Shown here: one piece after another, positions 8,167 through 64,000 of the stretch
Position numbering within the stretch: position 1 is the stretch's first letter
Layout of the letters: each line of letters starts with the position of its first letter
Source of the DNA: Octopus vulgaris
Taxonomy: Eukaryota
Length of the DNA stretch: 64,000 nucleotides
Direction: 5' to 3'
Assembly: GCA_951406725.2 (NCBI GenBank)
Contig: OX597817.1
Coordinates: forward strand, 138,632,001-138,696,000
The notes under the pieces: model-generated
What the model was told of the DNA's origin: nothing
Seen by the model: the letters and a program-made list of their open reading frames with translations, nothing else
Databases searched by the model: none
Made by a program: the position numbers and the translations under genes

Positions 8167-8258
8167 TATCCTGATGAGGAGGGGGGGGGGGGTCATCGCC
8201 GTATTGCACTTTAGTGTAAATAAACTGCGGTAGTGAGCTCCCGAAATGGTCATAGATA
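8167..8258 (+). ncRNA. Minimal type I hammerhead ribozyme motif
   Basis: Stem I TATC/GATA; core CTGATGA (8171-77); long stem II closed GG/CC; GAAA (8243-46); stem III A-TGGTCA-T; cleavage triplet AUA; about 110 bp 3' of the Naiad fragment. Confidence 0.75.
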
Positions 8259-8651
8259 TATGTGAATGTTGAATTGGACCTGTGAAGTCTGCTCATTATG
8301 AATCATGAACGTACTTGTGCAAGGGAAGTAAAAAACGTTTTTTCAAGATATATGTGAATTTGACCTGTGGCCAGTCTGTTTACTTATGAACTTTGGACGT
8401 ATTTGTATGAGAGAAGTAAAAGATTTTTTCAAATACTTTTTCAAATATTAAAAAAAAAATTTTTTTTAATATTTTAATCGTCAGATAAAACATTTTTAGC
8501 CGTTGGATATTGATTTTATTTTTACTTTTACCTTTACTTATTTTATATTTATTTATTAGGTTTTTTTGGTAGTTTTTGAATTTGTAGCCGTTTTTATTTC
8601 ACATTTTTGATAGGCCGTTCTATTTGTATTTTATTCGATTATATATTTTTA

Positions 8652-9471
8652 GGATCTTTTCCTTTTGAACGGCAGTTTTCAACACAATTTCTAGTTAACT
8701 AAACACTTTTAAACTTCGTATACTGGTAGAATGTGTTTATACAACATCATTTTTTCTTGGCTTTATTGAGAAAATTCTATAGTTTGTAAGATATTTCCAC
8801 TTTAAAATCGAGCATTTCGGCAATTTTAACCAATCGCTCACCTCCATTTGGGGTGAAAACATTCCGTGCTGTATGAATATGTCCCTCAGAAACAGATTGA
8901 GTTTATTTACATTTGCGAAGAAAAAAAGATACCCTTTCCCTAACCCCTAACCCTAACTCTAACTAACCCTAACCCTAACTCTAACTAACCCTAACCCTAA
9001 AACAGATTGAAATGCAATAGATCGATACTAGGGTTATAATTATGGGTGACAATTTCATACGACATCGCTACGGAAAAAGGGATTTTTTTTCTAGCGGTGT
9101 CAAGTGAAAATGTCACCCATAATTATAACCCTAGTATCGATCTATTGCATTTCAATCTGTTTTAGGGTTTGGGTTAGGGGTGGGGGAAGGGTATCTTTTT
9201 TTCTTCGCAAATGTAAATAAAGCCAATCTGTTTCTGAGGGACATATTCATACAGCACGGAATGTTTTCACCCCAAATGGAGGTGAGCGATTGGTTAAAAT
9301 TGCTGAAATGCTCGATTTTAAAGTGGAAATATCTTACAAACTATAGAATTTACTCCATAAAGCCAAGAAAAAATGATGTTTTATAAACACATTCTACCAG
9401 TATACGAAGTTTAAAAGTGTTTAGTTAACTAGAAATTGTGTTGACATATGCCGTTCAAAAGGAAAAGATCC
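8652..9471. mobile_element. Head-to-head inverted dimer of the TTAGGG-containing MITE (~820 bp palindrome)
   Basis: Outer ends GGATCTTTTCCTTTTGAACGGC / GCCGTTCAAAAGGAAAAGATCC; the left half is the reverse complement of the right half; centre near 9080 lacks the inner TIRs. Confidence 0.85.
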
Positions 9472-9692
9472 TTCTGTGATTTCATGTATACGTATTATTT
9501 TTATGTATTTGGGAACTATGGTGATTTTTTTAATAGATGATTAAATGTTTGAGGGGTGGTGTTGTATGTAAAGTCGTTGACCCCGATTTAATGTTTGTTC
9601 TATAACCAATGCTTCTTTACCTTCGTCTCGTATTTGAACACTTTTGCAGTCCTATAAACCTTTCTGTTTCTATTAGAGACAAATATTATTTC

Positions 9693-10117
9693 GGATCTTT
9701 TCGGTTTGAACGGCAGTTTTTTCTAGCGGTGTCATATAAAATTGTCACCCATAATTATGACCCTAGTATCGATCTATTGCATTTCAATCTGTTTTAGGGT
9801 TAGGGTTAGTTAGGGGTGGGGGGAAGGGTGTCTTTTTTTCTTCAGAAATGTAAATAAACTCAATCTGTTTCTTAAACGAGGAACATATTCATACGGCACA
9901 GAATGTATTTTACCTTAATGGACGTCACTGATTGGTTGAAATTGCAGAAATTGAAAAAAAAAAACAACAACAAATATCTTACAAAAAAATAGAATTTTCT
10001 CAATAAAGCCAAGAGAAAAAGATGCTTTATAAACACATTCTACCAGTATACGAAGTTTAAAATTTTTTAGTTACCTAGAAATTATGTTAAAAACTGCCGT
10101 TCAAACCGAAAAGATCC
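9693..10117. mobile_element. ~425 bp MITE with 28-bp TIRs, 8-bp TSD and internal telomere-like repeats
   Basis: TIR GGATCTTTTCGGTTTGAACGGCAGTTTT; TSD ATTATTTC at 9685-92 and 10118-25; internal TTAGGGTTAGGGTTAGTTAGGGG. Confidence 0.9.
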
Positions 10118-10254
10118 ATTATTTCTTATATATATATATAAGATCAGCAACAATTTAGATTCAAATGAATATGGTACTTATCTGTATATTTACCTTCCCT
10201 AAAATGTTATTACTTGATTTGAAAGCTTTTATATTATTGGAAAACCTATATAAA

Positions 10255-60243: not shown

Positions 60244-61085
60244 CAGGTTGCGGTGAATAAATTGTCCTTTAAATTATGCAAAAATGAAAATAACACATCT
60301 CATTTTAACAGATATTTACTAAAATTACATAAAGATATCTTGAGTAAATTTATTCAGTAAAATCGCCATTAGCTTTCAGCAACGGCCTCCAGACGACTTC
60401 GGAATCTCCTGCAACTCTTCGAGACGGTCTCCTTGTTTAAGTTGGTGAATGCTGCCATAATCCTTGCCTTCAGCTCATCTTTGGTGTTACAAGGAGTTTT
60501 GTTGGTCTTTCGCTCAACTGCACCCCACATAATAATCAAGGGGTTTGCAGTCTGGAGGGGTGGGGTGGGGTGGCCAAATTTTAGGGTCAATGTGGTTACA
60601 TAAATTGTCTGACAGCCATGACTGGATTCTCCAGCTTTTGTGGCATGGTGCAGAGTTCTGCTGCCAGATATAGGGTCTTCCAGCAGCCACCCTCTTGACC
60701 CAGGGCAGCACTAACTCCTCCGGGTACTTACTGTAGGCCTCCGTGTTGAGTCTGAGGCCTTATGGGAAGATGAATAGAAGCATAACGTGGCCATCACTAC
60801 TGATTACTTCAAACACCATGACGTTGAATGGATGTTAGATTTTTATCATTCTCGGTAAATGTCTTCAGACTAATACCCAAACACTCTGAAATGTTCGTAT
60901 TCGAGCTTCCAGCGCGAATGCTAAGCAGTACAGCATGTCGTTTCCAAATTTCTGGCAGAGTGAATTACGTTATGGTGCTGTTTTTTTCCCAGACGGTGCC
61001 CAACTGACCTTACTATACTGTATAGTTGACAAAATCAAAAACAAACAATGCGGAAGCGCGAAATTAAAAATATAAAATGGCAACA
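60244..61085 (-). mobile_element. Internally deleted Tc1/mariner-superfamily element (maT/DD37D-like)
   Basis: TIRs CAGGTTGCGGTGAATAAATTGT / CAGGATGCGATGGGTAAATTGT; YIWQQNSAPCH, WPP..PDCKPLDYY, WGAVE, RFRSRLEAV. Confidence 0.85.
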
Positions 61086-61624
61086 ATTTACCCATCGCAT
61101 CCTGAATATGTATGTGTATATGTATAAAATTATGAGTTAGAGGTTGTGTAACCGTTTAAGGGATAAATGTATCCGAAGGCACGACGGGTGTATTACCTAA
61201 CTATGTATAGGCCTTGTTGTAAGGTTAACAGTAGCTGTTAATTAAAATGGTAAACCGTGGTTTAATATATTCAGATAAGAGATGATCAACTTCTAATTGT
61301 TACATGTTGCTCCATTTCTTCTCTTTATCTGTCTGTCTGTCTGTCTGTCAATATATATATATTAAAGAAAATAGAAATAATTAATAACTATTTACTAATT
61401 TAATTATCTCTATTTTCTTGAATATATTTAAACCTCAGTTTATCTGATTACCTTACAGTTGAATATTAATTGTAATATTCAATACTTTTTGTAATAGATA
61501 ATAAACCAGTATATTCATTGCATTTTATTTTCTCTTAATGAGGTTTTTAACCTTCAACTGATCGCTTATATATATATATATATATATATATATATATATA
61601 TATATATATATATATATATTATAT

Positions 61625-62018
61625 ATATAATACCTACATAAACGTATAATATATATATATATATACCTACATAGATGTATATATATATATAATACCTACA
61701 TAAACGTATAAATTTATATATATAATACCTACATAAATGTATATATATATAATACCTACATAGATGTATATATATATATATATATAATACCTACATAAAT
61801 GTATAATATATATATATATATATATATATATATATATATAATACCTACATAAATGTATAATATATATATATATATATATATATATATATATATATATAAT
61901 ACCTACATAAATGTATAATATATATATATATATATATATATATATATATATATATAATACCTACATAAATGTATAATATATATATATATATATATATATA
62001 ATACCTACATAAATGTAT
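61625..62018. repeat. Compound minisatellite: TAATACCTACATARAYGTAT spaced by variable (TA)n, about 10 units
   Basis: Directly visible. Confidence 0.9.
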
Positions 62019-62041
62019 TATATATATTATAAATATTTATT

Positions 62042-62406
62042 TCCCAAAATAAAAAAGAATCGGAAATCTTTCTCGGGTCATAGGCCCATCAGGTCGCTTT
62101 CCCGGATTTTATGGAAGATATATTTCCTCCTTGGATGACACATTGGGATAAAAGAAAAACCACCAAATTATCCTGTCATATATGGTTCTTAAAAAACAGC
62201 GAGTCAGCGATAGGATATACTGGAAGATCCTGGCTAAGTGTAAACCATATACCAACGGTGGTGGCAAGTGCGGTCTTTGTGATATGGAAAAATGGCTCAT
62301 CTGGAAAAATTCCTTGAACCCCACTACATGCCTAAATTCAAAAACTGAATTTTTTTGTTCATGTCCATATTTGACAAAATACCTGTTACAGTTTTGGGCA
62401 CCCTAA
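62042..62406 (+). pseudogene. Naiad-type Penelope C-terminal fragment
   Basis: IYWKILAKCKPYTNGGGKCGLCDMEKWLI..CLNSKTEFFCSCPY. Confidence 0.8.
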
Positions 62407-64000
62407 GATCACGGATAGAATTCGCATTTTTACTATGTTCCTGCACAAGCATTCCATATGTCTTAACATTTTTTTATTGTTTTTATATATATATTCTCAT
62501 TTTTTTTTAATTGCGTGAATATGTACGTGTGTGAGTATATATATATATATATATATATATATAGGGAGAGTTTACGAAAAAAACAAAAGACGAAGACAGT
62601 TGGTGTACAAAACAAACAGATGTATTAATATAACGCTCAGGAATAGAAAAAGTTTTTTACGTTTCGAGCCTACGCTCTTCTACTGAAAGGGACACCGAAA
62701 AAAACAGGAGAGAAACAAGGAGAGAAAAAAATGTGTGTAGTGGTTAACGATCGTGCGTGTGTATATATGTGTATGTGTGTATGTATATGAGTGTAGGACT
62801 CTGTCCACTGCATAAGTGCGACTTTCATGCACACGACTCCTTCATTTATACGGATATGCATATGCTTGTATATCTGCGGTTGTAGGTGTTTGATAGAACG
62901 ATGTATATGTAAATATATATGTGTGTATATATGTGCATATATGCATGAATGTATATGCGGGAGTATGAATGTATACCTATATATATATGTGTGTGTGTGT
63001 GTGTGTGTGTGTGTGTGTATGCAAGCATACACACACTGAGCAGCTAATTTCCACAACTGTGCACAATTTCTCTTCTCTATCCCAAATCATATAAGTTCTG
63101 TTGTGCTTACATTTTATTGAGGTCTTCACTGGGACATTTCACCAGTATTCCTTTTAATGTATGTATACATATATACATACATACATTACGTGCCTAAATA
63201 AACGGGTATCACCTAAATATACACACTTGCTCATAAAGTTACATATACACAAATAAATTCGAAACTATGACATTACCAAAATTAAATCAATAAAAGATTT
63301 TCCCGGAGCATCTCTCCATGACAATCCACCCTAAAACCTAATTACCTACCATTCCATTCAAACTTACATATACAAGGAAGATTTCCACTCGACAGACTAT
63401 ATATAAAGCCAAGAATAACTTTAATACTTCGCAGTTACTATCAATAATATTTTTATTTAAGAATTATATATACATAAACATGCACACACACACACACATA
63501 CACACACACACACACACACACACAAATATATATAAAGGTTAAACGAAAGCGCTCACACACTAGAAAAAGCTTCTTCCCAAAACAGGTTAGTAACATCCTC
63601 ATAAAGGATTTCATAACACTTTTTTTTAAAATAATTACTTTAAAAAATCATCTGTACACTTCAAAAATTGTATTAAGTAATTGTGATACACTTTCAAATA
63701 TACATACATACATGGTAGCTGCTCCCTCGTTATCGAGTATGGCCATTGCACGAGTATGGCCATTGCACGAGTATGGCCAATGTTGTTATCGTGCAATGCC
63801 TGTGCAAGAAGATTTTTTTTAAAGTGAGGAAAGGCTGTGCACTGAGTCAATCCCACTCACTAAGTAACAGCAGCCATAATCCGAAAAGAAGAACAAGTCA
63901 ACATCATCGGTAACCACAGAGTCGCAGGTTTTATGTCGGAGTTAACCCAGTTACCTGAGTTACCTTCTCCTAGAAGGATGCCCTAACAAAAGCTAGGAGT

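Follow-up and report, generated by a model that had tools for sequence, protein, structure and literature searches.

Penelope-like elements and their hammerhead ribozymes

Minimal hammerhead ribozymes of heterogeneous sequence occur as single copies in the thousands per genome, with opposite-strand pairs and U3-A8 cores among them (Cervera and de la Peña 2014, PMC4209133). Among the Penelope-like elements (PLEs), the Hydra clade, which includes Hydra-1_Obim of Octopus bimaculoides, is described as having a C-terminal endonuclease (EN), a CxCX5C linker, loss of CCHH, insertion at (TA)n and hammerheads that are easy to detect, whereas Naiads are described with an N-terminal EN and without canonical hammerheads (Craig et al. 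2021, PMC8557442). For Poseidon PAc, internal initiation, a tail, insertion in vitro without a need for cleavage, and a protein-assisted ribozyme have been reported (PMC11167929), and retrozymes together with their PLE origin have already been covered (PMC7229834; bioRxiv 10.64898/2026.07.22.740005). Here we analyze a 64-kb stretch of the Octopus vulgaris genome (assembly GCA_951406725.2, contig OX597817.1, positions 138,632,001 to 138,696,000; hereafter the window), for which a preliminary description had listed 14 type I hammerhead folds. The folds are mostly real type I hammerheads within the tail ends of Penelope-class elements, which is a known arrangement. The explanation that we hold with high confidence is that they belong to 3' terminal repeats of a number of unrelated Hydra- and Neptune-type PLEs, where the single copies were likely left by (TA)n-primed reverse transcription that stopped early, and that one family, D, is a tandem unit likely mobilized in trans via a predicted circle.

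Hammerhead folds in the window

Sites are named by the coordinate of core position 3 and the strand, and core positions follow the Hertel hammerhead numbering. The window has a GC content of 34% and is full of (TA)n-type microsatellites. The strict type I descriptor (stem I of ≥4 bp, CYGANGA or UYGANAA, stem II of ≥3 bp, GAAA, a paired or palindromic helix III, and UH) matched four sites in the window, 10259+, 10579-, 21528- and 23473+, compared with means of 0–0.07 and a maximum of 1 in local dinucleotide shuffles (60 shuffles at each of three block sizes). The broad descriptor, which also tolerates an additional base following A9, a single mismatch in helix III and CUGUNGA, returned the identical four sites (mean of 0.05 and maximum of 2 in 100 shuffles). 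The conserved core and a three-helix junction closed by stem I are present at the four strict sites, and two more sites, 8171+ and 23748-, have an intact core with imperfect stems. Ten of the 14 folds are thus supported, comprising the four strict sites and six imperfect or decayed ones judged via their relatives; 41275+ is undecided, and 10770-, 43290- and 59406+ are unsupported. No hammerhead was among the 150 of 408 Rfam matches listed for the window, nearly all of which were microRNA models driven by microsatellites, and none of the four PLE-derived frames of the window matched any Pfam family.

Each supported fold is a member of its own dispersed family, and the diversity of the stems is explained by many independent families rather than by a single hypervariable element. 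The near-absence of shared stem sequence, the palindromic helix III and the insertion within (TA)n, all noted in the preliminary description, were borne out, as was the tie to PLEs, for which a reverse transcriptase (RT) or EN lies upstream in longer copies. Five folds unaccompanied by an open reading frame (ORF) of their own in the window, 10259, 10579, 23473, 29974 and 62685, lie in 3' ends of Hydra- or Neptune-type elements that are truncated on the 5' side; 21528- alone is truly ORF-less.

Hydra-type elements

The hammerhead of family A (8167–8258, +) has the core CUGAUGA at 8171, a domain II insert of ~60 nt, a near-palindromic helix III and a predicted cut after 8254. It lies in a Hydra-clade PLE 3' end (7817–8449, +; tblastn) that consists of an EN remnant at 7820–8052 with an internal deletion of ~240 bp, a 3' untranslated region (UTR) and a tail region. 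Although the window copy has one mismatch each in stem II and helix III, its relatives L024 and L037 satisfy the descriptor. RT and then EN lie upstream in the sense orientation in the relatives L271 and L269, L035 also has an upstream RT or EN, and the linker reads CNCRNPGLC in L268 and L269. The second Hydra-clade remnant (30619–32925, +) retains an RT thumb (30619–30984) followed by a CSCRDKTKC linker, a GIY-YIG EN (31555–31852) and a long 3' UTR with a decayed hammerhead (32576–32710). This fold, 32580+, has a domain II of ~110 nt, and GAAG replaces the GAAA that is present in all seven relatives whose displayed sequence extends far enough.

Family B is represented by a 5'-truncated Hydra 3' end (10141–10372, +) between (TA)n runs, the strict hammerhead of which (10255–10340) has the core CUGAAGA at 10259, a structured loop II of 49 nt, the palindrome ACAAUUGU and a predicted cut after 10336. 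Two copies, L279 and L280, have 1.3 kb of common upstream sequence including a Hydra EN, and the linker in relatives is CNCRIRSNC. Within-family covariation, which the preliminary description had proposed as a check, is present in B: in 30 of 35 distinct copies (near-duplicates and one short copy were excluded), both partners change in 12 of 24 pairs and 93.7% of cells are paired, relatedness among copies being ignored. The covarying pairs include stem I, the helix III palindrome and a hairpin of the insert. Family E is represented by a 5'-truncated Hydra-type 3' end with a long UTR (23065–23528, +) and a strict hammerhead at 23469–23506 with the core CCGACGA. A Hydra-type EN is found 1.3–1.7 kb upstream in L070 and L083, and the 5' extents of the copies are graded, up to 1726 nt. 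The 3' ends of the copies are fixed. Families B and E display an optional 3' tail and inverted 5' duplications occur at many loci, both of which are PLE hallmarks.

The preliminary description had placed three of the folds (8167, 32576 and 41271) after the GIY-YIG ends of Naiads. The upstream position of a C-terminal GIY-YIG domain was confirmed, but the Naiad identity was not. The EN before 8171+ and 32580+ matches the C-terminus of the homologs P0001–P0003, and the order at 30619–31852 is RT and then EN. The Naiad label is wrong because in the two checkable remnants a C-terminal EN and a CxCX5C linker point to the Hydra clade, the CCHH cysteine pair being missing and a single cysteine lying between VIY and YIG. 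The Hydra-type motifs DKT and RWK are present in homolog P0001 and DKT in L270, in a part of the RT that the window copies lack. Among named homologs, the closest to the window PLE protein is from Argonauta. The third remnant (40889–41328, +) contains only an EN, resembling the C-terminal EN of P0001–P0003, and a broken hammerhead-like fold (41271–41328) with the core CUGAAAA; this site, 41275+, is single-copy with no relatives found. A further Hydra-like EN end at 62080–62388 (+) and a CxCX5C linker at ~53773 (-) are each without a detected hammerhead downstream.

The Hydra hammerheads have structured domain II inserts of 50–115 nt, which suggests why descriptors with short loops overlook such ribozymes. 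Long inserts may also explain the "HHR_half_core" cases of Craig et al., including that of an octopus Naiad.

Neptune-type elements and the A6U core

Family C is represented by a 5'-truncated Neptune-type 3' end (10394–10599, -) with a strict hammerhead at 10584–10543 and the palindrome AACCGGUU. A compensatory U3-A8 core is present in 22 of 23 parsed copies, and a hammerhead of another family, in L271, has a second U3-A8 core. A Neptune-type RT/EN ORF lies upstream in 5 of 24 copies, the parent linker is CARPNCGTC (CX4CxxC), and the 5' extents are graded from 2 to 1504 nt.

The window also contains a broken Neptune-type RT fragment (21748–22855, +), truncated at both ends and 82% identical to a young intact family. 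A protein search with this RT returned 150 scored matches, many within long open frames. Over 2.8 kb, five intact Neptune copies are 99.4–99.8% identical to L257 and one is 97.3% identical. The motifs PADKGG, CSRPRCRTC and IIYCISCSLCNSLYIG in L257 and L260 correspond to DKG, a CX2-5CxxC linker and, at the C-terminus, a GIY-YIG with a cysteine pair, and by these motifs the elements would belong to the Neptune clade, Neptune and Nematis not being told apart by a tree. Seven long copies contain Neptune ORFs of 1098–1214 stop-free codons; family G is found at the 3' end in all seven and flanks the ORF as direct repeats in six.

In the window, family G is present as two solo Neptune pseudo-long terminal repeat (pLTR) ends. 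The first (29915–30097, +) has a decayed motif at 29970–30005 with G5A, G8U and a G at H17, and the second (62564–62751, -) has a minimal hammerhead at 62689–62654, in which A6U is family-wide and U4A is specific to the copy. By homology there are 18–20 copies of family G per random Mb, corresponding to roughly 50,000 terminal-repeat copies. The motif is parsed as stem I, CUGUNGA, an extra A, a 4-bp stem II, GAA, ACGU, H and stem I, and position 6 is a U in 78 of 80 copies. Between subfamilies, variation in the core and stems is confined to the tolerant positions N7 (all four bases) and H17 (A or U), and the other core and stem positions are 89–100% constant, CpG sites being the lowest. A sister family, known from two copies, has the same architecture and keeps A6, which supports this parse. 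The alternative parse U3-N4-G5-A6-A7-G8-A9 was rejected, because it gives stem II a single pair and leaves three bases without a partner.

A6C, another change at position 6, has been reported as slow-cutting (PMC3088659), and A6U is likely to weaken cutting in this very abundant family. A more specific proposal, which we put forward tentatively and rate as somewhat short of probable, concerns a Neptune that is still amplifying with A6U fixed and the rest of its fold retained across subfamilies. Its hammerhead would be either a functional natural core variant, rescued by protein or by a dimer context, or a fold under selection for some role other than cleavage, for example in binding the RT; alongside it, D, with its near-canonical extended stem I, would be mobilized as a 530-nt circle by a PLE enzyme. 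If this is true, the A6U Neptune and D together would provide a natural experiment on whether cutting is required of PLE hammerheads at all.

Family D, an ORF-less 530-bp unit

The partial copy of family D in the window (21289–21697, -) has a strict hammerhead at 21533–21468 with an extended stem I (5 bp, a 4x4 loop and 6 bp). D is a 530-bp head-to-tail unit with no long ORF, the longest stop-free stretch being 56–103 amino acids, and the sequence upstream of the hammerhead runs on into the unit's own post-hammerhead part. Two hammerheads on the same strand ~530 nt apart are found in 3 of 36 hammerhead-bearing loci. Many other D loci are longer than one unit; their 5' ends are scattered, whereas their 3' ends concentrate around unit positions ~240–270 and ~340–370. 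Head-to-tail joints of D are also present in contigs of an independent public run whose type is unrecorded; for three runs that we guessed to be RNA, contigs cover the unit with no end-to-start joint listed, which counts neither way. Past the 4x4 internal loop, stem I was parsed in 22 of 41 copies and the distal 6-bp helix is mostly kept. Covariation in D is modest, with 5 of 14 pairs changing on both sides when relatedness among copies is ignored.

The hammerhead 21528- had been described as an inverted one just 5' of the Neptune RT. The possibility that D is an inverted pLTR of the adjacent Neptune was rejected, since D is absent from all 12 Neptune-centered loci; its motif is found in none of the seven long Neptune-type copies, which bear the 62685/29974 motif instead. 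Two D loci, L005 and L007, have Hydra-type coding fragments nearby that are not collinear with other D copies, and the fragments in L007 end in their own, different hammerhead. Repeats 69–77% similar to the D post-hammerhead segment were observed in L164 (3613–3859), L123, L170 and L191, and in L164 the D-like downstream segment follows a different hammerhead-like fold. This segment may be a common RT-recognition segment. As judged from its sequence, D would fit either a non-autonomous PLE derivative or a non-LTR retrozyme, and this repeat, which encodes no protein, is predicted to give rise to circular RNA.

Proposed origin of the single and tandem copies

In the mechanism that we propose, the GIY-YIG EN would nick AT-rich DNA (based on what is reported in PMC11167929 and PMC4209133), and target-primed reverse transcription at (TA)n would start at a fixed internal RNA site 35–280 nt downstream of the hammerhead, so that even short complementary DNAs would include the ribozyme. 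Early termination of reverse transcription would then give rise to short 3' ends that hold it. The palindromic helix III would leave single copies weak and tandem copies competent as dimers, and owing to this weakness most solitary genomic copies are likely to be inert fossils. For D, the tandem hammerheads would yield a 530-nt monomer, the circle of which would explain the copies beyond one unit, although a multimeric linear template would account for these copies equally well. Apparently fixed 5' ends for D, B, C and E were dismissed as a query-boundary artifact, exposed by comparing flanks.

The preliminary description had instead regarded the ORF-less copies as non-autonomous, retrozyme-like families. 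That all of them are independent retrozyme families spreading via their own circular RNAs is improbable, and as a general claim it is already refuted. It would hold for family D, and solo pLTRs of family G may likewise be transcribed and mobilized alone, as indicated by the clustered 5' ends of short G copies and by one (TA)-spaced G dimer (L108). In A, B, C, E and G, however, the sequence is collinear with RT/EN in longer copies, the 5' truncation of C and E is graded, and upstream of the hammerheads of B and C the sequence repeats the downstream part in 0 of 14 and 1 of 24 copies, respectively.

Several observations weigh against early-stopped reverse transcription of PLE 3' ends, with D mobilized in trans, as the full account. 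Free folding recovers the three-helix junction just partly, and the clade labels are based on motifs and not on a tree. The 5' ends of short G copies (~190–210 bp) fall in clusters (14 of 16 random copies), close to a motif that the subfamilies have in common; random truncation alone thus seems insufficient, and some copies may be mobilized as solo pLTRs. In D, further pair types are no better than in shuffles (409 of 500), the 10.1-11.1 pair fails to form in 19 of 40 copies, and no autonomous partner was found in ~45 loci examined, 40 further listed copies lying outside that set. Finally, no parent element was identified for family F, an old hammerhead (23711–23752, -) with the core CUGAAGA at 23748, a weak stem I and one old relative with the same fold (L092).

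Genome-wide density

The density of intact folds was sampled in 100 random 10-kb stretches from 25 contigs covering 2.52 Gb of the 2.80-Gb assembly (227 contigs, the window lying on the contig designated C4). The strict descriptor gave 6 matches in 5 of the 100 stretches, compared with 0–4 (mean of 0.9) in eight shuffles and 0 in a reversed-strand control. With the broad descriptor, 17 stretches contained 19 matches, 9 of them having a standard core and the other 10 A6U, compared with 0–1 (mean of 0.2) in 10 shuffles. This corresponds to 19 intact folds per Mb, or ~1 per 50 kb (95% interval of 11–30 per Mb), and by extrapolation to ~53,000 intact-looking folds per genome (interval of 32,000–83,000). 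The density is a lower bound, because domain II inserts of >90 nt escape both descriptors. The window is above average, the probability of ≥4 matches being 0.035 at 19 per Mb and 0.003 at 9 per Mb, uncorrected for the window having been picked. At least 10 further hammerhead families with unrelated stems were seen, many with loop II inserts of 25–60 nt, in the random stretches L174, L225, L166, L169, L177, L200 and L209 and also in L007, L025, L078, L081, L087, L089, L257 and L271.

The preliminary description had inferred a self-cleavage site every few kb, and the measured density of intact folds is about tenfold lower. It is very unlikely that the host has co-opted a dense self-cleavage network that trims transcripts every few kb, even though ~53,000 folds are extrapolated and many of them would be expected in introns. 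Besides the low density, over half of the intact folds have A6U (10 of 19), individual copies show scattered core and stem mutations, and published data on related systems point the same way: in vitro, single minimal PLE hammerheads are reported to cleave little or not at all (PMC4209133), 8 of 9 Xenopus dimers were uncleaved (bioRxiv 10.64898/2026.07.22.740005), and the anole RNA sequencing reported in PMC11167929 gave no reads ending at the site. Chance matches in AT-rich, microsatellite-rich DNA would fit 10770-, 43290- and 59406+ but are refuted for 10 of the 14 sites by the shuffle controls, the family-wide conservation and the compensatory changes, making this the least credible explanation of the cohort.

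Remaining sites and other repeats in the window

A 3' half-hammerhead (50445–50545, -) with GAAA at 50502 lies within a repeat end that is duplicated in inverted orientation, and a complete fold matching it was read by eye in the relative L069. The site 10770- was rejected as a hammerhead, as stem II fails and the core and GAAA are found in none of the five relatives viewed (six were found). The surrounding segment (10617–10811) is the end of a repeat whose 35-bp inverted duplication is perfect, and the apparent hammerhead between its arms is absent from relatives. At 43290- and 59406+ there is just half a core, and the loci collected include no relative of either site.

An abundant short interspersed element-like repeat of ~400 bp, interrupted by a (TA)n run, has at least eight copies in the window, among them 396–863, 14739–15204, 19466–19903, 28425–28845, 38247–38658, 42619–43030 and 43307–43662. 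An inverted-repeat family resembling miniature inverted-repeat transposable elements, with telomere-like (TTAGGG)n tracts, occupies 8667–9472, 9693–10124 and 26403–26842. Mariner-type fragments (Pfam HTH_48) are found at 45622–46493 and 48718–49589, duplicated at 98.6% identity, and at 52884–53290, together with a Tc1-like helix-turn-helix fragment at 34713–35021 (-) and a non-LTR RT fragment (Pfam RVT_1) at 36593–37684 (-). Another dispersed repeat, often present as long palindromes, is found at 11912–12830, 43831–44395, 53805–54206 and 57711–57874, and a 2.2-kb (TTA)n run (15592–17795) has an embedded 190-bp duplication (17361–17551 and 17814–18004).

Comparison with known systems

The cohort itself is ordinary, because divergent minimal hammerheads scattered by truncated PLEs have been in print since 2014. 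The PLE hammerheads reported in PMC4209133 have the same type I topology and short palindromic helix III, their single copies were attributed to truncated PLEs, and the opposite-strand pairs 100–700 bp apart, the U3-A8 variant and the extra nucleotide after A9 (here in family G and its sister family) recur as well. Family G differs in having A6U fixed within an otherwise identical minimal architecture, and, compared with the short-loop rows of the supplement to that paper, the Hydra-type folds have 3–4-bp palindromic helix III stems and structured domain II inserts of 50–115 nt. In the literature listings there was no paper on octopus hammerheads or on a natural A6U hammerhead, although earlier supplements may hold A6U or long-loop cases, and "hammerhead" and "ribozyme" are absent from the main text of an octopus repeat annotation (PMC13282606).

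The Hydra-type copies share with the described Hydra clade the C-terminal GIY-YIG, the CxCX5C linker, the lack of the CCHH pair, insertion in (TA)n and a hammerhead downstream of the ORF, but here several distinct families have unrelated hammerhead stems and the window copies are all remnants. Naiads likewise target (TA)n, have a GIY-YIG EN and are known as remnants in octopus, but they have an N-terminal EN, a DKA motif and no canonical hammerhead, whereas RT precedes EN in the window remnants. The elements with family G resemble Neptune/Nematis and Poseidon PAc (PMC11167929) in the DKG motif, CX4CxxC, the C-terminal GIY-YIG, partial tandems of pLTR, ORF and pLTR, and a fixed 3' end past the hammerhead; unlike in Neptune/Nematis, their core is CUGUNGA. 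A family-wide A6U in a recently active element informs the open question of the role of PLE hammerheads.

Like the non-LTR retrozymes (PMC7229834; bioRxiv 10.64898/2026.07.22.740005), family D is AT-rich and ORF-less, is built of head-to-tail units that each bear a type I hammerhead, and includes many monomers. Its length of 530 bp is above the 150–450 bp range given in PMC7229834 but within the 51–972 bp range of bioRxiv 10.64898/2026.07.22.740005. In contrast to the long arrays of retrozymes, D copies extend to ~1.8 units at most and are dispersed with PLE-type ends. An ORF-less 530-bp unit with such ends links retrozymes to PLE mobilization in a cephalopod. Overall, the cohort is real and mostly of a known kind, adding new members to the PLE hammerheads and retrozymes with two twists, namely A6U in a recently active Neptune and the ORF-less 530-bp unit.

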